A stretch of DNA of 64,000 nt from Candidatus Kaiserbacteria bacterium (GTDB lineage: Bacteria > Patescibacteriota > Minisyncoccia > Phycocordibacterales > UBA918): contig JANPCG010000015.1 in assembly GCA_031430855.1 (NCBI GenBank), positions 68,522-132,521 on the forward strand. Direction: 5' to 3'. The notes beneath the pieces are model-generated. The model ran no database searches. It had not been told where the DNA came from and saw nothing but the letters and a program-made list of their open reading frames with translations. Below, one piece after another: positions 8,852 to 53,893 of the stretch (the first letter of the stretch is position 1; the number at the start of each line of letters is the position of its first letter). A program made the position numbers and the translations under genes.

Positions 8852-8879
8852 GAAGATGGGAGAGAAAGGAAGTCACAAA

Positions 8880-9098
8880 CTGCGGTTGCTGTTTGTGAGT
8901 AGGCGAAAAGAAGGTTCGCAGTCTGAGTCTGTCCCCGCTTCACACGCAGGTGAGTCGCAGGTTCCAGGCCAGGCAATCAGGCGATTTTTCAATTTCGCTC
9001 ATGCTGAAGGTTCGCTGCTACGGAATCAGGTTGAGACCAGACGGACTGAAGGTTAAGGCAGCAAAAGGTCAGTCCGGTGGGCTGACCTTTTCCTTTTG
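8880..9098 (+). ncRNA. Possible small structured RNA ending in an intrinsic terminator
   Basis: GC-rich segment with repeated GAAGGTTCGC/CTGAAGGTT blocks and no convincing ORF. It ends in AAAAGGTCAG-tccggtgg-gCTGACCTTTTCCTTTT (9062-9098). Confidence 0.2.
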
Positions 9099-10844: not shown

Positions 10845-10874
10845 ATGACAAAAAAGCTGTATTTGCAGGAGTGA
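10845..10874 (+). pseudogene. Silent 5' fragment of msrA (ATGACAAAAAAGCTGTATTTGC...) fused to repeat-element copy 1
   Basis: At least 16 nt are identical to the start of the msrA CDS at 11160 (atgacTaaaaaagctgtatttgcC). A 1-nt deletion shifts the frame into a TGA inside the repeat hairpin. Confidence 0.4.
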
Positions 10875-10952
10875 AGAAGTGTTAAGACACTTCTGCAAGA
10901 GGTTGCCTGCTATTTTGAAGAATGAAAAATAGCGACAACCTGAACAGGTTCT
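10868..10952 (+). repeat. Structured repeat element, copy 1 (hairpin1 GAAGTGT-taag-ACACTTC; hairpin2 AGGTTGCCTGCTATTTT..AAAATAGCGACAACCT; hairpin3 TTCTGTAAGAA)
   Basis: Homologous to the segments at 11046-11130, 17544-17734, 30509-30714 and 26236-26310. Differences in the hairpin arms are compensatory. Confidence 0.6.
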
Positions 10953-11007
10953 GTAAGAACTGCATTTAGGTAAACGTTTTAATAAATACTCTTTAACAAC
11001 ACATACC

Positions 11008-11046: not shown

Positions 11047-11130
11047 GGTGAGACAGTCCGGGGGACTGTCGCAAGAGGTTAACGGCTATTTTGGAAAAAT
11101 AGCGATAACCTGAACAGCTTCTGTAAGAAG
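11046..11130 (+). repeat. Structured repeat element, copy 2 (hairpin1 GACAGTCC-ggg-GGACTGTC; hairpin2 AGGTTAACGGCTATTTT..AAAATAGCGATAACCT; hairpin3 CTTCTGTAAGAAG)
   Basis: Same architecture as copy 1 with different hairpin sequences that are still complementary. Confidence 0.6.
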
Positions 11131-11159
11131 TGGATGACCTATTCGTTAATATTTATTTT

Positions 11160-16064: not shown

Positions 16065-17561
16065 ATGTCTCGCATGGATGGATTGGTCGTCTTTAGTGAC
16101 GTCTCATATGAATATGATGCAACCCGGCCAATTTTAAAAGCGGCCAATTTTGTCGTGCGACGAGGTTCAAAACTTACTCTGATGGGTCAAAATGGTGCCG
16201 GCAAAAGTACCCTTTTTGCTTTGATTATCGGCCATCTTAAAGTGGACGAGGGCGATATTAACATTCAACCACGTACCACCATTGCGGTCTCGCGTCAGAT
16301 TATTCCACGGCCTGAATTAGAACTCACCGTCCGAGCATTTTTTGAACAGTGTTTTACTGAAAAAGTCTACGATATTGACCCTAAAATTGATGACGTGCTT
16401 GAGATTGTAAACTTGGTGCCAACAGAGAAAATGAAAGAGGAATTCAAGGACCGTATAATTGGTAGCTTCTCAGGTGGTCAGCAGGCGCGCTTGCTTTTAG
16501 CACAGGCGTTGATTCAGAACCCGGATGTTCTTCTGCTTGATGAGCCAACGAATAATCTTGATGTGGCTGGGATTGACCACCTCACCTTGTTCCTAAAGGA
16601 CTACAAGAAAACGGTATTGGTAATTTCCCACGACGCTGATTTTCTTAATTCATTTACTGACGGAGTACTCTACCTGAATGTTCAAAATCGTCAGGTGGAA
16701 CAATATAATGGAAATTATCATGCGGTCTTAAAAGATATTGCAGCTCGGGTGGAAAAAGAACAACGTCAAAACGCACAGCTTGCTAAAGAAATCCAAGCCA
16801 ACAAAGACAAAATTAACTACTTCTCGAATAAGGGCGGGAAGATGCGGCTGGTTGCTAAACGGATGCGGGACGAAGTCGAGGAAGCGGAAGAGAACAAAGT
16901 CGATGTGCGGCGTGAAGATCGGACGATTCGTCCCTTTACCATTGAAACCCAGCCGGAGGTACCGGTTGATGTAGTGAAACTCTCGTCATATAAAGTAATT
17001 CGTAATCATCAGCCCAAAGACGTGGAATGTTCCCTCATTATTAAGCGTGGTTTTCATCTTCAGATTATAGGTCCAAACGGAATTGGGAAAACCACGCTCT
17101 TGGAGTCTCTGGCGTCAGGTCATGCGAAAGGGGAGCATATTGCAGAAGGGGTAAAAATTGGCTACTACCGTCAGGATTTTTCTAATCTTGAGTTTGATAA
17201 AACAGTATTTGAAACATTGATGGATTCGATGTCAAAGAAAATTGAAGAAGATATGAGGTCTGTCGCCGCTGGTTTTCTTTTAACTAATGACGTGATGAAA
17301 ACTCGCGTGGGAAATCTCTCTGAAGGACAAAAAGGGCTGGTTGCCTTTGCCAAGCTGACGATGGAGCGGCCAGGCCTCTTGATTCTCGATGAGCCAACAA
17401 ACCATATCAATTTCCGACACATCCCGGTGATTGCCGAAGCCTTAAATGAATATAAGGGTGCCATGATCTTGGTTTCTCACGTCCCTGAGTTTGTGGAGCA
17501 AATTCGTATTGATGACGTACTTGATTTGGGTAAAGAGAGCAAACGAGTGAGAAGTGACTAA
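16065..17561 (+). CDS. ABC-F family ATPase (tandem ABC domains, no TM; translation-factor type)
   Basis: Two Walker A motifs (GQNGAGKST; GPNGIGKTT), two signature motifs (LSGGQQARLLLA; LSEGQKGLVAFA) and two Walker B motifs (LLLDEPTNNLD; LILDEPTNHIN). The last 6 codons and the stop lie inside repeat copy 3. Confidence 0.85.
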   Translation: MSRMDGLVVFSDVSYEYDATRPILKAANFVVRRGSKLTLMGQNGAGKSTLFALIIGHLKVDEGDINIQPRTTIAVSRQIIPRPELELTVRAFFEQCFTEKVYDIDPKIDDVLEIVNLVPTEKMKEEFKDRIIGSFSGGQQARLLLAQALIQNPDVLLLDEPTNNLDVAGIDHLTLFLKDYKKTVLVISHDADFLNSFTDGVLYLNVQNRQVEQYNGNYHAVLKDIAARVEKEQRQNAQLAKEIQANKDKINYFSNKGGKMRLVAKRMRDEVEEAEENKVDVRREDRTIRPFTIETQPEVPVDVVKLSSYKVIRNHQPKDVECSLIIKRGFHLQIIGPNGIGKTTLLESLASGHAKGEHIAEGVKIGYYRQDFSNLEFDKTVFETLMDSMSKKIEEDMRSVAAGFLLTNDVMKTRVGNLSEGQKGLVAFAKLTMERPGLLILDEPTNHINFRHIPVIAEALNEYKGAMILVSHVPEFVEQIRIDDVLDLGKESKRVRSD

Positions 17562-17734
17562 TGTCACTTCGCAAGACCTTGCCTGCTCTTTTGGAAAAAG
17601 AGCGACAAGGTGTACCGCTTCTGTAAGAAGTAGCGACTATTGCGAACTTTGTTCCCGATTTGTCCTCCTAAGGCTAAAACGTGATTTAATATCACGTTTT
17701 AAAACCATTTGAGATATTTTGAATTAATGAAAAA
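17544..17734 (+). repeat. Structured repeat element, copy 3 (long form: hairpin1 GAAGTGAC-taat-GTCACTTC, hairpin2, hairpin3, then hairpin4 TTAAAACGTGAT-t-ATCACGTTTTAA and a conserved ATTTGAGATATTTTGAA tail)
   Basis: About 85% identical to copy 4 over about 190 nt. The ABC-F stop codon sits in the hairpin1 loop. Confidence 0.65.
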
Positions 17735-17868
17735 TATCCAAATGGTGTACTGCTCCTGTAAGGAGAAGCGCTGGAGCGTATACTCCAATACTTTTGAATA
17801 CATACGTTATTTCCGTATTTTGCACCCTTGGTCCTTGAACTGGTATACTAGGGCACGTCATTTGCTGT

Positions 17869-24000: not shown

Positions 24001-26172
24001 ATGGCTCGAGAATTTCCGATTAATCGCATGCGTAATTTCGGTATTGTGGCGCACGTTGACGCTGGTAAAACCACGACGTCTGAACGAGTTCTTTTTTATA
24101 CCGGAATGTCCCACAAAATTGGTGAAGTACACGATGGTGCTACGGTAACTGACTGGATGGAACAAGAGCGAGAACGTGGTATTACGATTACCGCGGCGGC
24201 GATTTCCTGTAACTGGTCTAAATCTGAAGTGGTGGACCGTAAAGATCGGTCGCAGATGTACAACTTTAACATCATTGACACTCCCGGCCACATTGACTTT
24301 ACGGCTGAAGTAAAGCGTTCAATGCGTGTACTTGATGGAGCGGTCGTCGTGTTTGACTCAGTAGCTGGGGTAGAGCCACAATCTGAAACGAACTGGGGTT
24401 ATGCTGACGAGGCTGGGGTGCCACGTATTTGTTTTGTAAATAAAATGGACCGCCTGGGAGCCGACTTTGAAAAGTCGTATGCCAGTATCCTTGACCGACT
24501 CTCAAAGAAAGCGGTTCGAATCCAACTACCGTGGGGTGCTGAGGATCAGCTCAAAGGAGTCATTGATTTGATTAAGATGAAGGCCTTTGTGTTTGAAGGT
24601 GAAATGGGGATGACTGTTCGAGAAGTAGAGATCCCTGCCGAACTACAAGCTGATGCCGAAAAATACCGCGCAGAGCTTATTGAGCGTGTAGTAGAGCATG
24701 ACGACGCGATGATGGAGGCCTTCCTCGAAGGTAATTTGCCAACCGATGCTGACCTCAAAGCAACGTTGCGTAAGGCGGTCTTGGGTAACCAGCTCTTCCC
24801 GGTGATGACGGGTTCAGCCCTCAAAAATATTGGGGTACAGCTCGTGCTCGATGCGGTGGTTGATTACCTACCAGCTCCGACTGATTTGCCACCAGTTCGT
24901 GGAATTAATCCAAAAGATGATTCAGAAGTCACCCGTACGGCGAGCGATGAAGAACCGTTCTGTTCACTCGCGTTTAAGTTGCAGACTGACCCATTTGTTG
25001 GACAGCTGACCTTCTTCCGGGTTTACTCAGGTGTGGTAAAAGCCGGAAGTTATATTTATAACTCAACCACAGGTGAACGTGAACGACTCGGGCGAATTGT
25101 ACGACTCCAAGCTGACAAGCGAACTGAAATCGAAGAGGTATACGCGGGAGAAATTGCTGCCGGAGTAGGACTCAAAGACGTGAAGACATCGCATACACTC
25201 TGTGATGAAGCAAAGCCAATCATTCTCGAACAAATTGTCTTCCCAATGCCCGTGGTAGCAATGCGCGTTGAACCTAAAACTAAAAACGACCAAGAAAAGA
25301 TGGGGACTGCACTCCGTAAACTGGCAGATGAAGATCCAACCTTTATCGTATCGTCAGATGCTGAAACAATGGAAACAATTATCGCGGGTATGGGAGAACT
25401 CCACTTGGAAATTCTTGTTGACCGTATGAAGCGTGAGTTTGGAGTTGAGGCAAACGTGGGTGCTCCTCAGGTAGCCTACCGCGAGACGATTCAGCGCGCA
25501 GCCGAAGCCGAATACAAGTACGTCAAACAATCAGGAGGTAAGGGTCAGTACGGTCACGTTAAGATCCGCATCAAGCCACTTGAAGCGCTTGATCCAGAAG
25601 CGAAGGTTGCAAAAAATGTCACTCGTGAAGATCATTTTGAGTTCGTCAACAGTATTAAGGGAGGGGTAATTCCACAGGAATTCATCCCAGCCGTTATGAA
25701 GGGTGCCAAAGAAGCAATGGCCCGCGGTCAAGTTGCTGGCTACAAAATGGAAGATGTTTCTGTCGAGTTGTACGATGGTAGTTACCATGATGTTGACTCT
25801 TCGGAAATTGCCTTTAAACTAGCCTCTATTTATGCCTTCCGTGAAGCAGCGAAGAAGGCGAGTGCCGTGCTCTTGGAGCCAGTCATGAAGATTGAAATTC
25901 GTACCCCTGAGCAGTTCATGGGCGATGTCAACGGAAATATTTCAAGTAAGCGTGGACAGGTAGAAAGTATGGGTGAATTAGGTGACAAAAAAGTGGTTAC
26001 AGCATCGGTACCGCTTTCAGAGATGTTCGGGTACACGAATACCCTGCGCTCAATGACCCAAGGTCGGGCGAGTATGACGATGACCTTTGACCACTACGAT
26101 GTTGTACCGCCAAACGTATCATTGGAGATTCGTAAGGCAAGAGGCGTCAAAGACATAGAAACCGAAGAATAA
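24001..26172 (+). CDS. fusA: Elongation factor G
   Basis: NFGIVAHVDAGKTTTSERVL...DWMEQERERGITI...DTPGHIDFT and full-length EF-G domains (723 aa). Confidence 0.95.
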   Translation: MAREFPINRMRNFGIVAHVDAGKTTTSERVLFYTGMSHKIGEVHDGATVTDWMEQERERGITITAAAISCNWSKSEVVDRKDRSQMYNFNIIDTPGHIDFTAEVKRSMRVLDGAVVVFDSVAGVEPQSETNWGYADEAGVPRICFVNKMDRLGADFEKSYASILDRLSKKAVRIQLPWGAEDQLKGVIDLIKMKAFVFEGEMGMTVREVEIPAELQADAEKYRAELIERVVEHDDAMMEAFLEGNLPTDADLKATLRKAVLGNQLFPVMTGSALKNIGVQLVLDAVVDYLPAPTDLPPVRGINPKDDSEVTRTASDEEPFCSLAFKLQTDPFVGQLTFFRVYSGVVKAGSYIYNSTTGERERLGRIVRLQADKRTEIEEVYAGEIAAGVGLKDVKTSHTLCDEAKPIILEQIVFPMPVVAMRVEPKTKNDQEKMGTALRKLADEDPTFIVSSDAETMETIIAGMGELHLEILVDRMKREFGVEANVGAPQVAYRETIQRAAEAEYKYVKQSGGKGQYGHVKIRIKPLEALDPEAKVAKNVTREDHFEFVNSIKGGVIPQEFIPAVMKGAKEAMARGQVAGYKMEDVSVELYDGSYHDVDSSEIAFKLASIYAFREAAKKASAVLLEPVMKIEIRTPEQFMGDVNGNISSKRGQVESMGELGDKKVVTASVPLSEMFGYTNTLRSMTQGRASMTMTFDHYDVVPPNVSLEIRKARGVKDIETEE

Positions 26173-26446: not shown

Positions 26447-27736
26447 ATGTTAAATATTTACAAGTGCAGTAATCGAGCAGTCGGTATTTTATTTCTAGGT
26501 TTTGTTGCTGCGGGATTTCTATTTTTTGTATCGCCAGCTTCAGCTCAGATACTCTCAGCCCAACCAGCGCCAGCTGGGTTGCCCGGTTCTTCATTTGATC
26601 TTGATGGCTACCTCTGGAGTAGTACGATTGGGTGGGTGTCACTCAATTGTCGGACAGGTAGCGCAACGGGAGCCAGTGTCTGTCCAGGCTCACCTGGCGG
26701 GGGTCCTAAATCTGATTATAAAGTTGAGGTTGATTCCTCCACGGGAGCAGTGTCTGGTTACGCCTGGAGCAGTAATATTGGGTGGATTCGTTTTGGTGGA
26801 TTAAGTAATTTCCCTTCTGAAGGAGGGAATACTCAACTTAATGCCATGATGTCGGGTAACTATAGTGCAATGACGTTATATGGCTGGGCCCGAGCCTGCG
26901 CGGGCACAAACTCTGCGGCCGGCACTTGTAGCTCAATGGGTAATAATCCAAATTCGGGCAGTTGGGATGGCTGGATTTCATTACGAGGTGCTGCGCCAGA
27001 TTATGGCATTAGTACCAATCGAACGAGGACTACTGGGGCAGGAATCGCCAGTACCTCATTTGCCTGGGGAAGTACTGTCGTGGGATGGATTGGGTTTGAT
27101 TTAATTAAATTATTACTCCCGACCGCTACCTTAACGGGTACCGGGTGTACCATTGCCGTTGGTGCGAGCACGTGTGTTGCCAGCCTTGATTGGGAATTCA
27201 GTACCGACCCTACCGTACCAAGTCGCTCCATTCGACAAACAAGCCCTGTAGTAGTAACTAATATTGGCGGCGTAATACCCCCAAATGTTGGTAGTGCAGC
27301 AATTGACTTAACTGACGGCGGAAATGTAATTAGGGCATATTCAGCTTCTACAGAACTTGCGGTGCTTACTCTTACAGGTAGTTGTAATGCGCCAAATGAT
27401 TTCTTTACTCCGCCGGGAATTTGTGACCAGTTACCACCAACCGTTACTATTTCAACTGATAAAGAAGTGATTCGGTCGGGTGAAACGGTAACGATTAGGT
27501 GGACTATCACCCCGCCTGCAGGAGCCGCTGCGCTTTCTCCGACTACCTCATGTCGAGTGTATGGCCCAGGTATGCCAACTGGCGCACAGGGTATTGGTGG
27601 AGGTAACTCTGTGTCCTTGCCGATAAATAACGCTACGGCTTTTTCAGTTATTTGTAACGGAACCTTCAGCGCTTCAATGGGGCCAGCAGATGCCCAGGTT
27701 TCGGTTGAGGTAGTACCAATAAACCAGGAGGTCTAA
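26447..27736 (+). CDS. Secreted protein (429 aa) with signal peptide and Trp-containing repeats (SxIGW[VI]xF)
   Basis: Signal peptide with ASA|QIL cleavage site. Repeats: GYLWSSTIGWVSLNC / GYAWSSNIGWIRFGG / WDGWISLRG / AWGSTVVGWIGFD. Gly/Ser/Thr-rich with several Cys. Confidence 0.6.
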   Translation: MLNIYKCSNRAVGILFLGFVAAGFLFFVSPASAQILSAQPAPAGLPGSSFDLDGYLWSSTIGWVSLNCRTGSATGASVCPGSPGGGPKSDYKVEVDSSTGAVSGYAWSSNIGWIRFGGLSNFPSEGGNTQLNAMMSGNYSAMTLYGWARACAGTNSAAGTCSSMGNNPNSGSWDGWISLRGAAPDYGISTNRTRTTGAGIASTSFAWGSTVVGWIGFDLIKLLLPTATLTGTGCTIAVGASTCVASLDWEFSTDPTVPSRSIRQTSPVVVTNIGGVIPPNVGSAAIDLTDGGNVIRAYSASTELAVLTLTGSCNAPNDFFTPPGICDQLPPTVTISTDKEVIRSGETVTIRWTITPPAGAAALSPTTSCRVYGPGMPTGAQGIGGGNSVSLPINNATAFSVICNGTFSASMGPADAQVSVEVVPINQEV

Positions 27737-27975: not shown

Positions 27976-28389
27976 ATGAATTCAGAACAAGATGAGTACG
28001 CGACACCAACTTCTTCAATGTCAGATCCAAGGTCTCATCAGACTTTCATTATTATTGTTTTGTTAGCAACCCTAGTCGCTATTGTGGGTGGATATATTTA
28101 TATGGGGATGTGGTGGGCGAAGCAAGCGACGGTACTGGTTGCAGTAGAAGACGTTCCGGTTACAGAAGTTTCTGTACCTGAAGAATCTGATCGTAGACAA
28201 CAAATTTTTAACGCGCTCGAGCAAGCTACGACGTCAGCTACGACTGAAGAACGAGAGGCAATTATAAATGCTCTTGAAGAAACTTCTATGACAGCATCGG
28301 AGGAACGAAAGGCGGCCATACTGGAGGCTCTCAATAGCCCGTCCTCAGCTCCAGGGGGAACTGCTACTAGTGGCGAGGGACGACCGTAA
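27976..28389 (+). CDS. Small membrane-anchored protein with acidic repeat tail (137 aa)
   Basis: TM (TFIIIVLLATLVAIVGGYIYMGMWW) followed by repeated (I/A)(F/I)NALE(Q/E)(A/T)(T/S) units. Confidence 0.4.
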   Translation: MNSEQDEYATPTSSMSDPRSHQTFIIIVLLATLVAIVGGYIYMGMWWAKQATVLVAVEDVPVTEVSVPEESDRRQQIFNALEQATTSATTEEREAIINALEETSMTASEERKAAILEALNSPSSAPGGTATSGEGRP

Positions 28390-30049: not shown

Positions 30050-30400
30050 ATGGCAACTCCAACAACCAAAAAAACCAAAGCTGGTGCCGATGTGGTTGCA
30101 AAACTGCGTATCCGAGTGCGTGCCTTCGAGCACAAAATCCTCGATAGCTCAGTCAAGCAAATCATCGATACTGCCCTACGGTTTGACGCCGAAGTAGTCG
30201 GCCCGATTCCACTTCCAACTGAAATCAAGAAATACACCGTGAACCGGGCGTCGTTCGTATACAAAGACGCGCGAGAACAATTCGAAATGCGAACTCATAA
30301 ACGAGTTATCGACATTATGAACCCGAGTCCAAAAGTGATTGAAGCCCTCACCAATCTTTCATTGCCGTCCGGCGTGAATATTGACGTGAAGATGATGTAG
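30050..30400 (+). CDS. rpsJ: 30S ribosomal protein S10
   Basis: LRIRVRAFEHKILDSSVKQIIDTA...GPIPLPTEIKKYTVNRASFVYKDAREQFEMRTHKRVIDI matches S10. Confidence 0.9.
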   Translation: MATPTTKKTKAGADVVAKLRIRVRAFEHKILDSSVKQIIDTALRFDAEVVGPIPLPTEIKKYTVNRASFVYKDAREQFEMRTHKRVIDIMNPSPKVIEALTNLSLPSGVNIDVKMM

Positions 30401-30440
30401 TTTTTTACTCCTTAAAAAACTCCTCCCTGCATTCGCTCGG

Positions 30441-30478
30441 ACGCAAAATCCCCTACATTCGTAGGGGATTTTGCGTCG
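30441..30478. repeat. Perfect 17-bp-arm hairpin GACGCAAAATCCCCTAC-attc-GTAGGGGATTTTGCGTC downstream of rpsJ (no T-run)
   Basis: Seen directly in the sequence. It lies immediately upstream of repeat copy 4. Confidence 0.5.
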
Positions 30479-30508
30479 CTCGGCTCATTTAGTAGTAAAG
30501 CAAAACAT

Positions 30509-30714
30509 CGAGTGAGAAGTGACTAATGTCACTTCTCAAGACCTTATCGCTCTTTTGAAAAAAAGCGATAAGGCTGTAATTGCATCCTAATGCAATCTGC
30601 GGAGTGATATTAAGTCATTCCTCACCCTGCTCATTTCTCACCCCTCACCTAGGGCTGAAACGTGATTAAATATCACGTTTCAGAGCTATTTGAGATAGTT
30701 TGAAGCGTGAAAAC
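30509..30714 (+). repeat. Structured repeat element, copy 4 (long form, same hairpin1 as copy 3; hairpin2 CCTTATCGCTCTTTT..AAAAGCGATAAGG; hairpin4 CTGAAACGTGAT-taaat-ATCACGTTTCAG)
   Basis: Aligns with copy 3 along its whole length. Hairpins 2 and 4 carry compensatory substitutions. Confidence 0.65.
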
Positions 30715-30900
30715 TGTCTAAAGGTATGCAGATCCTGCGAGGAAGTTTATCCGTCTCTTCTCAACTTGATTATTTAACTACTTTAATAATGCTTTAGACA
30801 GTATTTGTGTGAACACAAAATCCTTCGTGGGGTCCATTCTGGGTGTGTGCACAAAGTCTGTGTGTAGCCGTTTTAAATGATAAACTTTGCTTAACCTTCT

Positions 30901-31425
30901 TTGTGTATGACTTTTTTTAAACCGTTTGTTATTATCCCTACTTTTCTTATCATTGCGCCACTTTTTTTAGGTTATAGTTTTATGAGTGCCCAGGTGTGGA
31001 CCAGTCCGCTAGCAACACCGCCTGCTAATAATACGAGAGCTCCGATAAATGTGGGTATCTCTGCAACCACTTTGCAAAATGGTGCTGGGTCGCTAGTCTT
31101 TAATCGTTTCGCGGCGACAGATGCTGTATGGTCAAATTCATACTGTGATTCTCTTGGGGGTAACTGTTTCTCCCCTGCTACTGGCCCAGCTATTCCAAAT
31201 CCTACCTGCGTTAACCGATCGAGTGCAATTGGTTCAAATAGCGTAACAATTTCGTGTCTGGCGGGTGAAGTAGCAATGAGTGGTGGGTGTCTTGACACCT
31301 GTTCAGGTGTCAGGACCGGTGATTGTACGGCTAAGGCAATTAATTACTCCGTACCAACAACTAACGGATGGTCATGTACGGTAAATAATCGGGCTCAGGC
31401 CACCGTACGCTGTTGCACATTCTAA
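30901..31425 (+). CDS. Exported Cys-rich protein, paralog P1 of a four-member family (conserved N-terminal module AQVWTSP..PPANN..APINVG..LVFNRFAATDAVWSNSYCDSLGGNC)
   Basis: N-terminal TM/signal followed by a conserved ~80-aa module shared with 37449-38219, 38325-39005 and 53992-54510. The C-terminal part is variable with 10 Cys. Confidence 0.6.
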   Translation: MCMTFFKPFVIIPTFLIIAPLFLGYSFMSAQVWTSPLATPPANNTRAPINVGISATTLQNGAGSLVFNRFAATDAVWSNSYCDSLGGNCFSPATGPAIPNPTCVNRSSAIGSNSVTISCLAGEVAMSGGCLDTCSGVRTGDCTAKAINYSVPTTNGWSCTVNNRAQATVRCCTF

Positions 31426-32009
31426 TTGCTGGACAAGATTATAGTAGTGACACTAACATGATTTCTCGCTCAGCTCTTTATCTTTGGATAAATCCGGTTC
31501 TAGTCGCGAGATGTCTTAGGTGGTGCCAGCAGTAGTGCGCGCAGACCTATTCCTAGAACGTCCAGTAATTAATCGCTCTCTTTTGACTAATGCTCGTGCG
31601 TGCGACGTGGTGGAAGATTGTCCAACTCAAAACTTTGAATTAATAAATATTGATTTTCCCGATGTATGACTTTGATAATGTGGGAATATAGCCAAGGTTG
31701 TGAGTGACAATCGAAGCGTGCGTATAGTGGTCGTCTCTACTCGTTTAGGATCTCTACCGTCACAAAAAACTGGACAGGATTGAGGACGACTGCTTTGGTG
31801 GGGTGCACATTAGTAATAGTTAATCACGTGTGTTTCTGAGTCCGAATTAGTTCATTCCGTTGAAGAATCTATAGCTTCGGGCTCAACTGATGTACCCATA
31901 ATACAATTATAAATAAAGTTTTTTAGAAAAGTGCTGTGAAAGAAGTAGGGGTTTTGTCCACAGATAGTATTGGTACCTTTAGATCTAGAATGTATAGTTA
32001 GTAGCAATG

Positions 32010-32040
32010 GGGGTGTGTTCCGAAAGGAGCACACCTTTTT
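32010..32040 (+). terminator. Orphan terminator-like hairpin (GGTGTGTTCC-gaaa-GGAGCACACC, then TTTTT) with no upstream CDS
   Basis: Stem plus T-run about 600 nt after the nearest upstream gene on this strand. It may terminate a non-coding transcript. Confidence 0.25.
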
Positions 32041-32079
32041 GCTGTAAAATTGTTTATCTCAAGTTAATAGAGCGTTATT

Positions 32080-34122
32080 ATGAAATCATTAGCATTTATC
32101 TTAAACCCTTTGCGTCGAAACCTGAACCTCACCTTAGTAGCTGGGGCGGCAGTGTATGTAATACTACTATTGTCTCCGAGCGTCTCGTCGGCAGCTGAAC
32201 GTCAACTTGAGCGGGGGATGTATGGTGAAGATGTGCGGTCACTACAGGTACTATTAAATAGTGATGATTCAACCCAAGTTTCAGAGAGTGGGGCAGGGTC
32301 AAGAGGTAAAGAAACAACTTTCTTTGGACGCGCAACTGAGGACGCTTTGATAAGATTCCAACAGAAAAATTTATCTAATATTCTCGATGTTTCTACATTA
32401 GGAGCTGGGATTGGTGTGTATGGCCCAATTACAAAATTGTTCGTATCGGAAAGAATGCTTGTGTCGACTATTTCAGATAAATCTCGTATCGTCGCAGACA
32501 CTTTCTCAAGTCAAAATACCAGCATATTAAACACAGCAACAACAGCTACTACCCAAATGCAAAAAGCTTCACTTGAAATAGTGGGGTTGTTAGAAGGATC
32601 TGTTGTAACTGGTGAGATTGTGGTTGAAGCAGTTTTAAAGGGTTTTATAAACACAAAAATAACCCGAGTAGTGTTTCAAATAGATAACGTAGTTGTGAGA
32701 ACAGAGAAAGTTGCCCCGTATTCTCTCGGTTCAAGTAAACCTGATTTGTCTTCAATTCCTTTTAATTTTTCTGCATTTGAGGATGGAAAACACAAGCTTA
32801 TTGTCACGGTGTTTGGAGATGAAATATCTTTATCAAATCCACGTACGAATGTTGGATTACTAAGCAAAACGCTTCTTTTTAGTACGAAAAAAAGTAGTAA
32901 GAGTCCATTTATAGTTCCTGTAGTAAAGACTAGTAAAATCGAACCGGTGAAATTACCTGCTGTGCCAATGAACTCACCTATTGCTACTCAAATTAATGCA
33001 AACGCAGTGTTATGTTCTAATGAAAATACAGAATGTAAATTCTCTGGTACAAGAGAAATCCGTTACGGTATTGGGAGTAAATTTTTTACTAAAATACTTA
33101 CTAATGGAACAGCTTGCACGAACGCAGTATTTTCTGATCCGATTGTTGGGATTAAAAAGTTATGTTACGTAGTAAATGGTACTTCAGATAGTAATAATAC
33201 TAATCAACCTATCAGTGCCGACATGCAAAAAAAGCCAGATATAATTCGGTCAACAACACCAGTAACGGTTCCCGTCGTGCCAATTACTAGAGCAGTTATT
33301 ACTCCTCCTGTTACATCTGTGCCAGCGCCAGTATCTCCAACTATAATTGCGTCAACATCAGGCAACAAAAATGTAAATGTCCTTGTAAATAAAGGAGCCG
33401 CAAGCGGCAGTCTTGGATGTGAGATTATTAATCAGTACTACGTAGAAAGTAAAAAAGTAGCAAAATATAAATGGAAGAGCTTCAATGCTGAAGAAGTCAT
33501 GGTTAATGGTAAGTCAGCCTCAGTTAATTCAGGTGTCTTGCTAACGTCGGAAATTACTTTCAATGGAACCAAAGCAACTGCCTTTGAGTTAGTCGTGAGT
33601 AAGGGAAGTGAAAGTAAGACTTGTCGAGTAATAGTGCCACCACTACTAGCGAAGTGTACAGCAACATTTACTGATAATATTCTTGATAAAACTTTAGTTG
33701 ACTATAAAGTAACTTTTCCCGCAATACCGGGAGCTCCGTACCAATCCAGTATGTATAATTCTCGAGGACTTCTACTGGCAACCTACAGTTCTGGAGAATT
33801 AGTAAATGCGACGAGTGTCACCTATACAGGAAAAATACTAAAAACTGCCGTAGCTGATAAAAAAGAAGTACAGTTTTTAACGAGAATGTATTTTCCGACA
33901 AACCTGATGGCTTCCATTCTTAATAACTCAAAATGTGTCACAAAGTACACCCCAGGCGCAGTAAATACTGTGCCTACGCAAGGAAATAATGGCTCTGGCA
34001 GCGGTCAAGCCGTAACGCCAACCATCCCCCGGAGTGGCACGACACCAGCAGCACCAAGTGCGCCAAGTAGTGGTGGTAGTTTAGGATCACCGTCATTACA
34101 AAACGGTCTATTAAATTTCTAA
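32080..34122 (+). CDS. Secreted protein (680 aa) with N-terminal peptidoglycan-binding-like domain and Ig-like/beta-rich repeats
   Basis: Signal/TM, then LERGMYGEDVRSLQVLLNSD...GRATEDALIRFQQKN (PGBD-like). A long Ser/Thr/Val-rich beta region follows. C-terminal Gly/Ser/Pro-rich tail. Confidence 0.6.
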   Translation: MKSLAFILNPLRRNLNLTLVAGAAVYVILLLSPSVSSAAERQLERGMYGEDVRSLQVLLNSDDSTQVSESGAGSRGKETTFFGRATEDALIRFQQKNLSNILDVSTLGAGIGVYGPITKLFVSERMLVSTISDKSRIVADTFSSQNTSILNTATTATTQMQKASLEIVGLLEGSVVTGEIVVEAVLKGFINTKITRVVFQIDNVVVRTEKVAPYSLGSSKPDLSSIPFNFSAFEDGKHKLIVTVFGDEISLSNPRTNVGLLSKTLLFSTKKSSKSPFIVPVVKTSKIEPVKLPAVPMNSPIATQINANAVLCSNENTECKFSGTREIRYGIGSKFFTKILTNGTACTNAVFSDPIVGIKKLCYVVNGTSDSNNTNQPISADMQKKPDIIRSTTPVTVPVVPITRAVITPPVTSVPAPVSPTIIASTSGNKNVNVLVNKGAASGSLGCEIINQYYVESKKVAKYKWKSFNAEEVMVNGKSASVNSGVLLTSEITFNGTKATAFELVVSKGSESKTCRVIVPPLLAKCTATFTDNILDKTLVDYKVTFPAIPGAPYQSSMYNSRGLLLATYSSGELVNATSVTYTGKILKTAVADKKEVQFLTRMYFPTNLMASILNNSKCVTKYTPGAVNTVPTQGNNGSGSGQAVTPTIPRSGTTPAAPSAPSSGGSLGSPSLQNGLLNF

Positions 34123-34793
34123 AATAAAGTACGAGGTACAAAAAACTCTGATATTTCAGGGTTTTTGTTAATTAAAGTGAGGTGTATAAAATTGTTTGTA
34201 TTATTGATGCTCTAATAACCATATCTTACATAAACAGTTATAAGTACATGATATATAAAAGTAATAATTAAAAATTAATTACAAGCAAATATTAAACCAA
34301 GTTCTTAAATGCTAACTCCCATGATTATAATTGTGATTTAGATAATGGTTAATCTGTAATTGTCCCACCAAAACATTATTATCGAATGAATTTATTTACT
34401 GCTAACTTAGCAAATACCCACTATCTATTTCTTGGGTTACCCGTAGAGGGTTCTCGATTGTGCTGTGGTATCGAGTTTAGATAGAGTGCTAACACATCAG
34501 CGGGAGGTAAACCTATCGGGTATATGGTGCGGGTGAGGCAGCGATTGGGGTGTCGATCAATGAGTTATTAATGTTGAGTGACGTAAAGTAATGACAGCCT
34601 GCTTGCTTTTTGTAAAAATTCACGTATAGTATCAGCAGCTTTTAAAGACCTACGTTCGTAGTAAAGACTCTCCGTGAATCTTTCCGAACCAATGGGCACA
34701 AACCGCGCTTTTACGTGTGGGACTTGTGTCCCGCGTTATATAGCGCGGTTTGTTGTACGGTCAAAAAGCGTTTATTCGTTAATTTCATTCATT

Positions 34794-36498: not shown

Positions 36499-37359
36499 AT
36501 GAAAAAATATAAACCAACATCAGCGGGTCGTCGTGACGGCTCAGTGATTGAATACAAGAAGAAACTTACTACCACGAAGAGTAATCCTTTGAAGTCGCTT
36601 ACGATGGGTGGTAAGAGTTCAGGTGGACGCAACAACCAGGGACGTACTACGGTCCTCAATCGAGGTGGAGGAAATAAACGTACCTACCGTTTGGTAGACT
36701 TCCGCTACGATAAGAAAAATATTCCTGCGAAAGTAGAGAGTGTTGAGTATGATCCATACCGAACCGGCTTTATAGCGCTCGTTCTTTTTGCTGACGGCGA
36801 ACGTCGCTACGTCCTTGCACCACAGAATATGGTGAAGGGTGACGAGATGATTGTTTCAGAAACTGCCAAGCCGAAAGTAGGGAACCGTTTGCCGCTCGGT
36901 AATATTCCGGTTGGTACAATGGTATTTAACGTTGAAATTAAACCTGGTGCGGGAGCGAAACTCGCTCGTTCAGCTGGTAACAACGCCGAGGTGGTAGCCC
37001 AAGATAGCGGCTACACTCTGGTTAAAATGCCTTCAACCGAAATCCGAAAAATCATCAGTACTGCCTGGGCAACCATCGGTGCTGTATCAAATGAAGAAAA
37101 TCGTTTGGTTGATTTAGGAAAAGCGGGACGTGCTCGTCATCGAGGAATTCGTCCAAAAACTCGTGGAGCCGCTAAGAACGCAGTGGACCACCCACACGGA
37201 GGAGGAGAAGGAAAGGCACCGCGAGGACACCGTCGTGCTCGTACGAAGCAGGGACGACCAGTTGGAAAGGGTCAAAAGACTCGTTCACCAAAGAAGTACA
37301 GTAACAAGTTTATTGTCACAAGACGAAAACCAGGCCGATTAATGACATCACGAAAGTAG
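36499..37359 (+). CDS. rplB: 50S ribosomal protein L2
   Basis: ...GRNNQGRTTV..RGGGNKRTYRLVDF... HRGIRPKTRGAAKNAVDHPHGGGEG matches L2. Confidence 0.95.
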   Translation: MKKYKPTSAGRRDGSVIEYKKKLTTTKSNPLKSLTMGGKSSGGRNNQGRTTVLNRGGGNKRTYRLVDFRYDKKNIPAKVESVEYDPYRTGFIALVLFADGERRYVLAPQNMVKGDEMIVSETAKPKVGNRLPLGNIPVGTMVFNVEIKPGAGAKLARSAGNNAEVVAQDSGYTLVKMPSTEIRKIISTAWATIGAVSNEENRLVDLGKAGRARHRGIRPKTRGAAKNAVDHPHGGGEGKAPRGHRRARTKQGRPVGKGQKTRSPKKYSNKFIVTRRKPGRLMTSRK

Positions 37360-37365
37360 TCAAAT

Positions 37366-37440
37366 AACACAAAACACCCCCATCTGGGGGTGTTTTGTGT
37401 TTGGGTACAACTATCAGGGGTGAATATATACCGCGGTATA
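37366..37440 (+). repeat. Direct repeat unit A (terminator AAAACACCCCC-atct-GGGGGTGTTTT + GTGTTTGGGTACAACTATCAGGGGTGAATATATACCGCGGTATA leader)
   Basis: About 95% identical to 38228-38302. It contains the rplB terminator and a TTGGGT-N18-TATATA promoter-like leader for P2. Confidence 0.7.
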
Positions 37441-37448
37441 ATTATTAT

Positions 37449-38219
37449 ATGACAATTACAAAACAAGTAGCCGTTATAATTTCTATTGCGGTAATTCTAC
37501 TTGGTCTGGCTGGGTATAACTTCATGAATGCGCAAGTGTGGACTCGTCCAACATCTCAGCCGCCACAAAATAACGTTCGAGTACCTATTAACGTGGGAAT
37601 TTCGTCTACAACAATTCAAAATGCAGTAGGCTCACTCGTCTTTAATCGATTTGCAGCAACAGATGCTGTGTGGTCCAACGCATATTGTGATTCTCAGGGG
37701 CAAAACTGTCAGAATCTAGGAAGTTCAGCAACTTCAGCAATTAATTACGTGCAATATGCAAAAGACTATTGCGATTTAAATGTTCCTAATCCAGGAAGTA
37801 CAAGTCTTCACGGAGTTAAATTAGCTAAGGGCGGTTTTTATGATTTTTATGATAAAAATGGAGCAACTTCAATTTTGGAATGGACATGTAAAGGTCCGAC
37901 TTCAGAAGTAAGCTACGAGATTCAAAATGCGTGTGGTTTTAGTGTAATAAATCCGGGCAGTGTGTCTCTGAATTCCGTTAGATTAAAAAATGGAACTAAT
38001 TATGATGTGTATGATTCTAATGGAGGAACCGCGATTCTGGAGTGGAGATGTAATAGCTCTGCACCAACCTATATAAGAAATATTGAAACCGCTTGTGGTT
38101 TTAGAGTTCCAAACCCAGGGAGTATTTCTCTAAACGGGGTCGTTGACAGAAATGGTAATTTCTTTGATCTTTATGATAATAATAATGGAACCGCGCGGCT
38201 CGTGTGGAGTTGTAATTAA
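37449..38219 (+). CDS. Exported Cys-rich protein, paralog P2 of the family; C-terminal region has three ~50-aa tandem repeats
   Basis: Conserved N-terminal module (NAQVWTRPTSQPPQNNVRVPINVG...YCDSQGQNC). Then 3x [C..NPGS.SL..V.L..G..YD.YD.NG.T..L.W.C]. The ORF extends to 37395 inside the repeat leader. Confidence 0.6.
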   Translation: MTITKQVAVIISIAVILLGLAGYNFMNAQVWTRPTSQPPQNNVRVPINVGISSTTIQNAVGSLVFNRFAATDAVWSNAYCDSQGQNCQNLGSSATSAINYVQYAKDYCDLNVPNPGSTSLHGVKLAKGGFYDFYDKNGATSILEWTCKGPTSEVSYEIQNACGFSVINPGSVSLNSVRLKNGTNYDVYDSNGGTAILEWRCNSSAPTYIRNIETACGFRVPNPGSISLNGVVDRNGNFFDLYDNNNGTARLVWSCN

Positions 38220-38227
38220 ATTTGTAA

Positions 38228-38302
38228 ACACAAAACACCCCCTATATGGGGGTGTTTTGTGTTTGGGTACAACTATCAAGGGTGAATATATACCGCGGTA
38301 TA
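38228..38302 (+). repeat. Direct repeat unit B (second copy of terminator + leader)
   Basis: See unit A. It marks a tandem duplication of the terminator/leader plus a family gene. Confidence 0.7.
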
Positions 38303-38324
38303 CTAATTATAGTAAGTATTTTAA

Positions 38325-39005
38325 ATGAAATTAACAAAACATTTTACAACAATAGTACCTCTTACTGTCATTTTTCTTGGCCTGGCTGGATACGGTTTTA
38401 TCAGTGCGCAGGTATGGACTAGTCCAACCGCGACTCCTCCTGCTAATAATGCTGCTGCTCCAGTAAATACTGGTTTAACTACCCAAACATAATCGGGTAA
38501 CTTTAGTGCAAACATTGTCTCCGCTGCAACCTCAACCTGGTCACCAAGATATTGTGATGCGTTGGGTGGTAACTGTTGGGACCCTACAACTGGCGCTCCT
38601 GGTGGGGGAGATACGATTATTGTTGGGGGGCAATGCTTCGAACCAGCCTGGGCGGTAACATGTAATTGGAATTGGAGTGGTGATGGAAATGACAATAGTA
38701 CATACATTCGACCATTAAGTGTTAGTCCTACTGGAGTTTGTAATTCAGTGGGAAGATCTTACCAGTACCACACCATGATTTTAGCGCAGTGCACCGCTGC
38801 ACCAGTATATGCCTGGTCAGTTGGCGCGTATGCTTGTAACGCACCGTATGCGTACTCGTGTCAAACAACTTCAGGAACCAATGTTCGTACGGTAACATGT
38901 CAAAATCAATATGGCGGTGTCGGTGCTGATAGTCTCTGTCCTAGTCCAAAGCCTACGACTGCGGGCGGATCTTGTACGAGGAATGGTGGTGGAAGTGACT
39001 GTTAA
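38325..39005 (+). pseudogene. Family paralog P3 interrupted by a single in-frame TAA (38490-38492); otherwise intact over 226 codons
   Basis: MKLTKHFTTIVPLTVIFLGLAGYGFISAQVWTSPTATPPANNAAAPVNTGLTTQT*SGNFSANIVSAATSTWSPRYCDALGGNCWDP... is all in one frame. The downstream part is annotated as ORF 38562..39005. Confidence 0.55.
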
Positions 39006-39128
39006 TTAAATCATCTATCAAACACAAAACTCTCAGGCAACTAGCTTGAGGGTTTTGTAGTTTATGCAAAAAAAGTTTGTAGGTAAGACTTGTCAGGGAT
39101 TTCTTTAGCGATATGATACAATTTTTGT

Positions 39129-39428
39129 ATGTTTAATTTTGTTGTAGATAAGTTACGACCAAAGTCTGAGTCAGGTAAAGTGGTGACACCAGCTGAAGCG
39201 CTTGAAAATAAATCAGTATGGAGCAGCCAGAGACTTAAAGACGGAATCCGTGACTATGAAGTGCTGATGGCGTTTATGGCTGTTGATCGTGCAGCGGGAG
39301 ATTCTCAACTTCGAGAAAAAGGTCTGGATACTATTCGAGGGATTCTCGCTAGTGAATGCAGGATGACATTTACTTCTGAAGCAGAGCTCGTGCAGTTTGT
39401 GAATGATTATAGTTTGCTTACTGAATAG
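39129..39428 (+). CDS. Hypothetical protein (99 aa)
   Basis: Codon composition is coding-like. No domain recognised. Confidence 0.35.
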   Translation: MFNFVVDKLRPKSESGKVVTPAEALENKSVWSSQRLKDGIRDYEVLMAFMAVDRAAGDSQLREKGLDTIRGILASECRMTFTSEAELVQFVNDYSLLTE

Positions 39429-39504
39429 ATTTCAAACTCTTTTTATATATCCCTAGTATCATTCACTTGGTTCTGGTAAAAACCATGAACCATGCTGATT
39501 TTGA

Positions 39505-39822
39505 TTAAATGCCCGGCTTCTTCTCTCGTTCATTCCATTGAAATAGTTTAAGATTCTTGTTTGCTTTTAGGTTGTCAATGAGAAACTTAGTTCGTTTCGG
39601 TTCGACGACGTGGACAGCGATTTTTTGGACTCCGGTTCCAGATATAATCAGCTCAAAACCAGCCTGGGTGTAGACCACTGTTATAAATCGTGGTCCTGAT
39701 CTACGAGCATCAATGATACCCGGAGCAATCATTTTAATGCCAGATATTTTTCCGAGCACCCGCACGACTGTTTCGGCCGTCTCGGTTAGTGTTGTATGGG
39801 AACTCCCTCGTTTACGCGCCAT
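39505..39822 (-). CDS. Hypothetical small protein (105 aa)
   Basis: Coding-like ORF that overlaps the upstream gene by 11 nt. No confident domain. Confidence 0.4.
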   Translation of the reverse strand: MARKRGSSHTTLTETAETVVRVLGKISGIKMIAPGIIDARRSGPRFITVVYTQAGFELIISGTGVQKIAVHVVEPKRTKFLIDNLKANKNLKLFQWNEREKKPGI

Positions 39823-40423
39823 GGTTCATGTATATCATTAATAACGGTTCAGCGATAAGCCGCAATAAATACAGGACTCCAATCGACCCAACCAGTAATC
39901 GCCACTTTCCTTCATATTTTAAATAGAGGTAAGTCAGGAGCCCGAGAACGAGGATGCTATCAAATACGCTCACATATCGCCCAAACTCTACAGTATTCCA
40001 ATATGAAATAGGGCTGTGAAATTTCCAATCTAAGAACGGATAAAAGTGACGGTACGCATCCTCTGTATGGACGAAAAAATCAACGATGGTGTGAAAAAGG
40101 GCTGAAATACTAAAGTATTTAAGAAAATTCCAGCCAAAATGTACGGAAAATCCAATCAGAAGGGGCCACAAGATAAAGGAATGGGTGAGGGTGATCGGGA
40201 TACTCCAGCCGGAATTAAAGTACATATCGTCCCACATTACCTCGCCTGAATACCCTAAAATAAGCCCATAGACGATAAAAAAGACATACGTTGGAGTATC
40301 AGGAAATAAAGCCCCTAGGATAAAAGCGGACGTCCGCTGTTTTGTGGAGACTGGGTTCAGGTCTAGTTTTTCAGTTTTTTTAGCTAGTGCCCAGCTGTAT
40401 ATGAGGTGGGACGGCGTAATCAC
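39812..40423 (-). CDS. Membrane-bound metal-dependent hydrolase-like protein (YdjM/DUF457-like)
   Basis: N-terminal M..SHLIYSWALA, multiple TM helices and conserved His residues (HSFILWPLL, HFGWNF, HTIVDFFVH), as in DUF457. Confidence 0.4.
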   Translation of the reverse strand: MITPSHLIYSWALAKKTEKLDLNPVSTKQRTSAFILGALFPDTPTYVFFIVYGLILGYSGEVMWDDMYFNSGWSIPITLTHSFILWPLLIGFSVHFGWNFLKYFSISALFHTIVDFFVHTEDAYRHFYPFLDWKFHSPISYWNTVEFGRYVSVFDSILVLGLLTYLYLKYEGKWRLLVGSIGVLYLLRLIAEPLLMIYMNHGA

Positions 40424-40467
40424 GTTTTCACTATACCATCAAAATATTGAAAAAGCGCCGAAAATGC

Positions 40468-40496
40468 TTGACGCTTCGTTAAATTTCCCGTACTAT
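40468..40496 (+). promoter_or_regulatory. Sigma70-like promoter (TTGACG-N17-TACTAT) driving a ~300-nt structured leader upstream of rpsS
   Basis: Near-consensus -35 and -10 boxes with 17-nt spacing. The leader contains hairpins CGGCAC..GTGCCG and GCACACCAT..ATGGTGTGC. Confidence 0.45.
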
Positions 40497-40810
40497 AGCC
40501 CACGTTCCTAACCGCATCGGTTATCGGCACCTATCTAGTGCCGAAAGTGTCAAAACAGAGAGCAAGTAAAGTTCAATTGTTTGGGAACCTCTGTTAAGTA
40601 AGGCAGTTACCTATACTTAGCCGAGGTTCTCAAAAGAGCACACCATTCATTTCATGGTGTGCATTTATCCATAGGACGCGCATATGTGGAAAATTTCTTT
40701 TTCGCACCTGCAGATTTCACCGCTCACCTTACTTTTGTAAGGCTCGGGAAAAATCCTTGCTGCTGCGCGAAATTTCCTCACCTGCACCCGTCCTAGTTAC
40801 ATTAATAAGT

Positions 40811-53287: not shown

Positions 53288-53893
53288 ATGGCCAAACATC
53301 CACACCAAGAACGAACTTTTGTTATCCTTAAGCCTGATACCATTCAACGCTCACTTATTGGTGAAGTAATCAAGCGATTTGAGCGTACTGGCCTCAAATG
53401 CACCGCGATGAAGATGATTATGGCTGATGAGGAGCGTCTGTTACAACACTATAATAAAGACGAGGCGTGGTTTCTTAAAAAAGGAACCCGGATTGCTGAG
53501 GATATGGTGGCGCAAGGTCGAGCGGTAGAAAAAGAACCAATTGAATATGGAAAAGACATTATCCGGACAATTGTGCATTATATGACCGCAGCGCCAGTCA
53601 TTGCTATGGTGTTTGAAGGAAATGAAGCCGTAGCGGTAGTTTCAAAACTCGTTGGTACTACTGAACCAAAGACGTCTGATGTAGGTACTATTCGAGGAGA
53701 CTTCACGGTTGATTCGTATAGTCACTCATCGTACGAAAATCGTTCAGTTAGAAATTTGGTACATCAATCTGAATCGCCAGAAGAGGCCGAACGAGAAATT
53801 GCTATTTGGTTTAATGAAGACGAGATTCTCTCATACATAACGGCCCAAGAACGCATTATGTATGACATAAATCTGGATGGAACTAACGAATAA
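53288..53893 (+). CDS. ndk: Nucleoside diphosphate kinase with internal insertion
   Basis: ERTFVILKPDTIQRSLIGEVIKRFERTGL...NLVHQSESPEEAEREIAIWF matches Ndk. At 201 aa it is longer than typical because of an insertion. Confidence 0.8.
   Translation: MAKHPHQERTFVILKPDTIQRSLIGEVIKRFERTGLKCTAMKMIMADEERLLQHYNKDEAWFLKKGTRIAEDMVAQGRAVEKEPIEYGKDIIRTIVHYMTAAPVIAMVFEGNEAVAVVSKLVGTTEPKTSDVGTIRGDFTVDSYSHSSYENRSVRNLVHQSESPEEAEREIAIWFNEDEILSYITAQERIMYDINLDGTNE

Follow-up and report, generated by a model that had tools for sequence, protein, structure and literature searches.

The closest described system to the proteins reported here is, as a functional analogy, that of the mosaic adhesive trimer (MAT) fibres of Bdellovibrio bacteriovorus. 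Caulton et al. described in these fibres a signal peptide, variable tips and an invariant N-terminal domain without PDB homologue, which is thought to dock on the predator surface, and found Peptidase_S74 domains in 13 of 21 of them (Caulton et al., 2024, PMC10769870). Also, Zhang, Aravind et al. described polymorphic toxin systems, with a conserved N-terminal trafficking part, recombining C-terminal cassettes and paralogs (Zhang et al., 2012, PMC3482391). In the ultrasmall Patescibacteria, host recognition and attachment are largely unknown beyond type IV pili (PMC11623550, PMC10633639). Our study describes four paralogous genes (c1-c4) of Candidatus Kaiserbacteria bacterium, found in a stretch of 64,000 nucleotides (assembly GCA_031430855.1, contig JANPCG010000015.1, positions 68,522 to 132,521; hereafter the window), and the family to which they belong. 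We rate at somewhat better than even the reading that the members are Sec-exported surface binding proteins, in which a common N-terminal handle carries swappable heads. In the text, other family proteins have P numbers and other contigs have L numbers.

As in the MAT fibres, the putative signal peptide is directly followed by a family-invariant N-terminal domain, the C-terminal tips are variable and swappable, there are many paralogs per genome, some members carry Peptidase_S74, and the bacterium that has them must recognise other bacteria. However, the N-terminal domain of the family has about 57 amino acids (aa) and no predicted regular structure, while that of MAT has about 130 aa and is beta-rich. 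The family members are mostly short and Cys-rich and lack the long fibre shaft, and S74 occurs in only one of 149 scanned members and in none of the window copies. MAT genes have not been reported in ribosomal operons, where the genes of this family are found. Phage tail fibre and receptor-binding proteins also combine a conserved attachment end with a variable tip, and some family members carry Collar (PF07484), Gp53-like_C (PF21882) or Peptidase_S74 (PF13884) domains. Unlike tail fibres, the family has a Sec-type signal and is encoded in the chromosome among housekeeping genes, and the window copies lack these three domains. A modular adhesin with a conserved anchor end is a known kind of protein, but the N-terminal domain and its placement in breaks of ribosomal operons appear to be new. 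In the literature and libraries that we searched, neither the module nor the family nor the operon slots turned up.

A six-frame translation search with a hidden Markov model of the module matched exactly four places in the window, those where the first-pass annotation had proposed a four-member family from the open reading frames (ORFs). The listing and translation of ORFs confirm the four genes, and the protein alignment confirms their common N-terminal hydrophobic segment and conserved block. The coordinates given before hold for c2, c3 and c4 (Table 1). For c1 the most likely start is ATG 30907 instead of TTG 30901, because it fits the 172-aa database protein P0001, identical or 99% identical to c1 and present on four other contigs. 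An in-frame stop codon in c3 had been overlooked. In L001, a near-identical contig from another sample, the same codon is AAA (Lys) and the 226-aa gene is intact (8241-8921), so c3 of the window is either a nonsense allele or a sequencing error. An alternative genetic code is ruled out, as the codon is TAA and reads AAA in L001.

The module has 55-59 aa in the window copies and comes directly after the signal-like N-terminus. In the protein alignment its consensus is (Q)(V)W-T-x-P-T-x-x-P-P-x-N-N-x-x-A-P-(I/V)-N-x-G ... Q ... G-(N/S)-(L/F) ... (W/R)-S-x-x-Y-C-D-x-x-G-x-N-C. The four copies are 51-69% identical in nucleotides and 48-77% in amino acids, and the 75-80% nucleotide identity claimed for the block was therefore too high. 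Synonymous differences are saturated (proportion of synonymous differences, pS, 0.57-0.87; nonsynonymous distance, dN, 0.18-0.55), so c1-c4 are old paralogs and not recent duplicates. In the four pairs with an estimable synonymous distance (dS), dN/dS is 0.22-0.41, in agreement with the purifying selection that had been suggested; c1/c2 and c2/c3 were left out since their pS is too high for distance correction. The sole sign of recent duplication that the sequence suggests is the likeness between the 5' flanks and signal regions of c2 and c3 (37366-37552 vs 38227-38428, 75% identity).

No described domain could be assigned to the module, as had been stated from the sequence. Scanning the four copies against Pfam, NCBIfam and PHROGs brought up nothing significant, and neither the module profile nor the c3-type protein nor c2 matched any PDB sequence. 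Longer members (P0114, P0118, P0156, P0157) show that the module is bipartite, with a part A (W..P...PP..N...P-I-N-x-G...Q-x-K-x-G-x-L) and a part B ((R/W)-S-x-x-Y-C-D-x-x-G-x-N-C). In some longer members a beta-rich domain is inserted between both parts or part B is repeated, and P0158, a tail-fibre-like protein of 596 aa, is headed by part A alone. In the AlphaFold2 prediction of c1, made with a 149-sequence alignment, residues 9-26 form a confident helix, the module has a predicted local distance difference test score of 71-85 without regular secondary structure, and the head is poorly predicted.

Outside the window the family is large. An exhaustive HMMER search with the four-module profile yielded 707 cluster representatives at E <= 1e-3, of which 135 also pass E <= 1e-10, so that the family comprises at least 707 clusters at 50% identity. 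Word-indexed protein searches performed weakly: they returned only the query itself at first, 13 proteins with the 149-sequence alignment and 3 with a module-only alignment, while a narrower alignment in the locus search gave 3 genome loci and 13 metagenome loci. Among 150 listed matches, protein lengths range from 68 to 520 aa, and in nearly all of them the first module copy begins no further than about 70 residues from the N-terminus, most often at residues 17-30. The usual module length is 57 aa. Across 149 members, conservation is complete or reaches at least 90% at A(-1), W, P, N, P, Q, G, Y, C, G and C. Where source names are given, they are Candidatus Paceibacteria, Patescibacteria group and, in one case, "uncultured Candidatus Saccharibacteria". 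In this sense, we are dealing with a large, undescribed family of Patescibacteria (the candidate phyla radiation), probably of the class Paceibacteria. IMG/VR viral contigs scanned with peptide patterns from the conserved module contained no relative.

The N-terminus of the window copies has one or two basic residues and about 20 hydrophobic ones, and ends in G-Y-x-F-(M/I)-x-A. When family members were aligned on the invariant Trp, the same layout was found, with 1-2 K/R, a median uncharged run of 21 residues, a G/S helix breaker 6-7 residues upstream of the junction, and then Y, N/S/Q and F. The presumed junction has M/I/L/S at -3, S/G/A at -2 and Ala at -1 in at least 90% of members, and 0-2 residues separate this Ala from the Trp. 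The -3/-1 rule of signal peptidase I requires a small residue at -1 and tolerates aliphatic residues at -3. By its sequence, the junction would thus be of the ordinary Sec/signal-peptidase-I type and acceptable under that rule, so a dedicated peptidase is not needed. The earlier proposal of a dedicated processing site, which had been based on the Met or Ile at -3, is not upheld, and no peptidase gene was found linked to the family genes. The conserved aromatic G-Y-x-F end of the hydrophobic segment is unusual, which would make an uncleaved signal anchor a live alternative. A lipoprotein is ruled out, as the four copies and the family consensus lack a lipobox and have no Cys at the junction or close to it, and there is no twin-arginine motif at the family N-terminus. 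A type IV pilin or pseudopilin, which the first-pass annotation had named as an example of a finding that would overturn its proposal, was also looked for and is ruled out: the prepilin motif G[FMYW][TS][LI][ILVP]E has no match in the six-frame translation of the window, and Pfam N_methyl (PF07963) has none in the four copies or in 149 members. Unlike in pilins, the hydrophobic stretch precedes the conserved A-x-W junction and a Pro/Asn-rich sequence comes after it.

The heads of the window copies (85-169 aa; median in the family, 141 aa) have no direct similarity among them. They had been described as unrelated, and BLASTP with each head indeed returns relatives elsewhere but never another window copy. 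The count of about 10 Cys in each C-terminal region fits the whole proteins better: c1, c2, c3 and c4 have 10, 8, 12 and 11 in total, with two in each module, 8, 6, 10 and 8 in the heads, and one extra in the signal segment of c4. Across 191 heads the Cys number is even in 96% (median 6), which fits extracellular disulfide bonding. These heads fall into 44 similarity clusters, 30 of which are singletons; the largest cluster, of 122 heads, is joined by shared sub-modules, which indicates that the heads are mosaic.

Each head type of the window recurs behind other N-terminal modules (BLASTP). The c1-type head is found also in P0022, P0048 and P0127, the c2-type in P0134 (56% identity), the c3-type in more than 20 proteins (including P0151-P0154, P0095, P0137 and L005 8875-9555) and the c4-type in at least 12. 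Head types pair with both module subtypes, as in P0017, where a c1/c2-like module precedes a c4-type head. The Pfam domains found in 149 members are TSP1_ADAMTS (7), H_lectin (4), the Gp53-like_C tail fibre domain (4) and Lcl_C (2), with phage tail Collar, Peptidase_S74, Sushi, Dermatopontin and PCSK9_C3 once each, and the long members match tail-fibre PHROGs. TSP1_ADAMTS (PF19030) is below the cut-off on c3 itself (E 0.062), reaches E 9.6e-10 in homologs of the c3 head type, and has precomputed matches in P0154 and P0095. The three repeats of the c2 head (Table 1) are separated by linkers of 14 aa; P0002 is a truncated copy of c2. The c4 head begins with a CPxGxxxxGxxxxGxxxC hairpin followed by a three-strand beta sheet, and AlphaFold2 models it as a confident beta sheet. 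Against the PDB and BFVD this model had only sub-threshold matches. The best of these weak fold matches were resistin and resistin-like molecules (PDB 1rgx, 1rh7), which also have a small disulfide-rich beta-sandwich head behind an N-terminal stalk, and the C-terminal Cys-rich domain of PCSK9, whose Pfam counterpart PCSK9_C3 is the one found in a family member. Variation by a diversity-generating retroelement is ruled out, since no template/variable repeat pair was present within the window for any head.

The genes are linked to translation operons. In the window, rpsL and rpsG (995-2163) are followed by about 22 kb of unrelated genes, fusA, two genes of exported or membrane proteins, tuf and rpsJ; then come c1 and a 680-aa exported protein, rplC-rplD-rplW-rplB, c2, c3, orf99 and two minus-strand genes, and finally rpsS onward to secY, map, ndk and c4. 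The positions between rpsJ and rplC, between rplB and rpsS and after ndk agree with those proposed before, but the number of breaks of the ribosomal operon does not, because the c4 site is the end of the secY-map-ndk stretch and not a break between ribosomal-protein genes. The contigs of relatives were recovered by protein identity or peptide pattern, regardless of location, and at least 20 independent contigs have family members in the same breaks, on the strand of the translation genes. The rpsJ/rplC slot is occupied in L005, L006, L010, L023, L024, L026, L027, L029, L030 and L040, the rplB/rpsS slot in L009, L010-13, L036, L038 and L040, the fusA/tuf slot in L016-19 and the after-ndk slot in L032 and L033, and in L034 a member follows rplJ-rplL. 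Two members of L039 lie just upstream of rplC, where rpsJ is not adjoining, and four of L007 just upstream of rpsS, with rplB not seen on that side. Furthermore, all five divergent members picked only for their long contigs (P0036, P0047, P0058, P0141, P0084) adjoin ribosomal-protein genes. The family-wide linkage to ribosomal loci, which the first-pass annotation had put forward for testing, is therefore strongly positive.

With its residents, the rplB/rpsS break seems to be a long-standing, fixed interruption in the S10 operon. Nearly all sampled relatives have the DUF2103-like gene in this break and most have the YdjM-like gene, while a counterpart of orf99 was seen in a few. Family members stand beside the minus-strand DUF2103-like gene in the rplB/rpsS slot of L007, L009, L010-13, L036, L038 and L040, with the YdjM-like gene also present in that of L007, L010-13 and L036. 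L021 (JACCDH010102761.1) has the order rpsJ, family member, orf105 (minus strand) and rpsS, with rplC-rplD-rplW-rplB absent from the usual place.

The slots are fixed but their content is not, as copy number and head type change fast. In the rpsJ/rplC slot, L036 has no member, L006 has one, L005, L010 and L040 have three and L030 has four. The closest relatives, L036 and L040 (rplB 92% and tuf 96% identical to those of the window), carry non-orthologous family members, and a 92-97% identity of ribosomal proteins does not prevent relatives from differing in copy number and head type. The window and L010 have the c3-type head in the rplB/rpsS slot, and L005 and L026 have it in the rpsJ/rplC slot. 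An in-frame TGA, at a codon that is TCA (Ser) in relatives, splits the fusA/tuf-slot member of L016 (8001-8885; also in L017 and L018), and 11 contigs from several samples carry the interrupted allele. Together with the TAA of c3, this suggests that nonsense alleles are common in the family.

Taken as a whole, these features may be accounted for as follows. A Sec-type N-terminal signal would carry the protein across the membrane; ordinary signal peptidase I would remove this signal behind the near-invariant Ala, or else it would stay in place as a signal anchor. The Pro/Asn-rich module of 55-59 aa, closed by the CDxxGxNC disulfide loop, would be the shared handle or stalk that retains the protein at the surface of the producing cell, probably in oligomeric form, and the disulfide-bonded C-terminal head would be a swappable ligand-binding tip, plausibly one that recognises host or prey cell surfaces. 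The genes themselves stand in slots of fixed position and orientation where the str/S10/spc translation operons are broken, and slot content turns over rapidly through duplication, recombination, loss and nonsense mutation. Paralogy, family size, the N-terminal place of the module, the kinds of head domain, even Cys counts, slot linkage and turnover were thus observed directly, whereas export, surface retention, oligomerisation and binding are inferred from them. H-type lectins, the Lcl C-terminal domain, S74-capped fibres and collar domains form trimers in their characterised members. As several of the recognisable head families do so, an oligomeric mini-fibre is plausible, and it would explain why the module is unstructured in the monomer prediction.

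Several observations weigh against the surface-binding interpretation. The evidence for surface location, binding and oligomerisation is indirect, and the AlphaFold2 monomer leaves the module without defined structure, its confidence being low when the alignment is shallow. The heads are small (85-170 aa) and there is no C-terminal wall anchor, so that a cleaved protein could be released. A recognisable head domain was found in only about 14% of the 149 scanned members. Of 11 members traced from database proteins, two lie outside such slots: P0155 follows secDF, and P0158 has mobile-element-like surroundings. Also, the slot linkage was seen in lineages with ribosomal proteins 56-97% identical to those of the window, and may reflect synteny inherited within one class instead of a trait of the family at large.

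The first-pass annotation had compared the layout with polymorphic surface, adhesin or toxin families. A conserved export or anchoring module with variable disulfide-rich heads was indeed found, and between these options we favour adhesins over toxins, because the only Pfam domains of the heads are binding or fibre domains and no consistent immunity-like gene was found. In the opposite case, the members would be secreted soluble effectors or bacteriocin-like polymorphic toxins, the N-terminal part being a trafficking or pro-domain and the Cys-rich heads the active toxins, delivered to the medium or to a host. Small disulfide-rich proteins with a conserved N-terminus and a variable C-terminus, several fast-changing paralogs per genome, the lack of a C-terminal anchor motif and the fast-evolving membrane protein gene (tm126) that follows c4 would all suit such a role. 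Nevertheless, unlike in polymorphic toxin systems, no toxin or enzyme domain appeared in the Pfam scan of 149 members (a search that did not include PADLOC or toxin-specific libraries), and every head that could be recognised is of a lectin, adhesin or fibre type. Nor were immunity genes seen next to the copies: c1 is followed by the 680-aa exported protein, c2 by c3, and c3 by the conserved 99-aa ORF. We regard this explanation as improbable.

Type IV pili are abundant in Patescibacteria, and the members might be filament subunits or tip adhesins, with the module as an incorporation or polymerisation signal (e.g. donor-strand-like) or as an element that docks on the pilus. The extended, conserved module that stays unstructured in monomer predictions, as if it folded only in an assembly, is in line with this idea, as are the genes for pilin (N_methyl) and pilus assembly that three members (L008, L014, L039) have at a distance of 2-6 kb. 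But the class III (prepilin) signal with its G/F-T-L-I-E motif is absent, the hydrophobic segment lies before the junction, no N_methyl match and no pilin gene were found in the window, and most members have no pilus genes nearby, which makes the filament role less probable again. Least probable, in our view, are abundant structural proteins of the envelope (cell wall or S-layer) that recognise no partner and lie in ribosomal operons only for high expression. The genes are co-oriented inside highly expressed operons, and other slot residents are exported or membrane proteins too, one with a weak peptidoglycan-binding match; yet structural proteins are normally conserved, whereas here even relatives that have 92-97% identical ribosomal proteins differ entirely in slot content, and the family tolerates nonsense alleles.

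With surface binding as the preferred role, a more far-reaching version is possible but doubtful: the module would be a new, Patescibacteria-specific domain for surface docking or oligomerisation, the heads interchangeable host-recognition tips, and the operon slots a functional design. If true, hypervariable, contingency-type adhesin cassettes would be built firmly into the genome where it is most conserved and most strongly transcribed, and adhesin expression would be coupled to ribosome synthesis, with rapid cassette exchange. The str, S10 and spc operons are normally among the most stable bacterial gene orders; here their breaks act as conserved hot spots whose content differs between near relatives. 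Since the family is large, unannotated, apparently exported, modular and fast-evolving, and has lectin- and tail-fibre-type tips, it constitutes a candidate set for the host-range determinants of the uncultured Paceibacteria. It may also provide a strain-typing or host-range marker flanked by universal genes, and a means to test whether operon position sets the expression of a surface protein.

Table 1. Positions in the window of the four family genes, their parts and the features around them (coordinates count from the first nucleotide of the window).
Feature	Positions	Strand	Description
rpsJ	30050-30400		flanking gene
rpsJ-rplC variable slot	30401-34793	+	c1 and 680-aa exported protein (32080-34122)
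c1	30907-31425	+	172 aa, intact; ORF opens at TTG 30901
c1 signal-like segment	30907-30990	+
c1 module	30991-31167	+
c1 head	31168-31422	+	8 Cys
rplB	36499-37359		flanking gene
rplB-rpsS variable slot	37360-40756	+	c2, c3, then conserved residents
Terminator-like hairpin after rplB stop	37367-37400	+	15-bp stem, loop ATCT; read from sequence
TATAAT box	37437-37442	+	6 nt before c2 ATG
c2	37449-38219	+	256 aa, intact
c2 signal-like segment	37449-37532	+
c2 module	37533-37709	+
c2 head	37710-38216	+	6 Cys
c2 head repeats	37770-37889, 37932-38051, 38094-38213	+	three tandem Cys-bounded 40-aa repeats; regular expression and internal BLAST matches via P0002
Terminator-like hairpin between c2 and c3	38230-38260	+	13-bp perfect stem
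c3	38325-39005	+	226 codons, broken by in-frame TAA
c3 signal-like segment	38325-38408	+
c3 module	38409-38576	+
In-frame TAA in c3	38490-38492	+	codon 56, at Lys of Q-x-K motif
c3 head	38577-39002	+	10 Cys, C-terminal TSP1-like stretch
orf99	39129-39428	+	99-aa ORF in rplB-rpsS slot
DUF2103-like gene	39505-39822	-	105 aa, in rplB-rpsS slot
YdjM/PLPC-like (Zn-PLPC-like) membrane protein	39812-40423	-	203 aa, in rplB-rpsS slot
ndk	53288-53893		flanking gene
Terminator-like hairpin with T-run after ndk	53913-53938	+	read from sequence, alignment
TATACT box	53978-53983	+	8 nt before c4 ATG
c4	53992-54510	+	172 aa, intact
c4 signal-like segment	~53992-54069	+
c4 module	54070-54234	+
c4 head	54235-54507	+	8 Cys

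A terminator-like hairpin and an A/T-rich stretch precede each window copy, the box of c3 lying 22 nt before its ATG. Because of this arrangement, the copies look like separate, possibly leaderless, transcription units. A Shine-Dalgarno sequence is not visible before c2 and c4 (37437-37451 and 53978-53994), which suggests leaderless or near-leaderless mRNAs for both. In a consensus promoter and terminator scan, promoters were not above the shuffled background, and the promoter statements are thus a reading of the sequence by eye.

Other residents of these regions also deserve mention. The 680-aa exported protein that follows c1 has weak PG_binding_1 and Big_7 matches. Between fusA and tuf there are a 429-aa exported protein (26447-27736) and a 137-aa membrane protein (27976-28389), both without Pfam match, whose homologs in relatives are in the same place and 31-44% identical, with flanking fusA and tuf 75-96% identical. 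The tm126 gene after c4 (54789-55169) encodes a four-helix membrane protein of 126 aa that is 39% identical between relatives, where the flanking ndk and beta-CASP RNase genes are 75-79% identical, and it may co-vary with the neighbouring family member.

A repeated intergenic element of consecutive hairpins is found at 30440-30694 and also at 17544-17764, 10869-10965 and 11069-11135. In the spacer between rpsJ and c1 it has four stems (17, 11, 15 and 23 nt), and 30509-30743 is 71% identical to 17544-17764. The two shorter copies keep the stems by compensatory changes, e.g. CCTTATCGC/GCGATAAGG vs GGTTGCC/GCGACAACC. The element matched no Rfam family and could be a structured RNA or similar to repetitive extragenic palindromic (REP) sequences or miniature inverted-repeat transposable elements (MITE). 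Finally, the str operon is itself split by the roughly 22 kb of unrelated genes (2164-24000) between rpsG (1693-2163) and fusA (24001-26172). Among their products are a 1284-aa protein with PKD and TSP3 domains, a GH15-like protein, MsrA, an ABC ATPase, NAPRTase and a disulfide oxidoreductase fused to a VTT domain.

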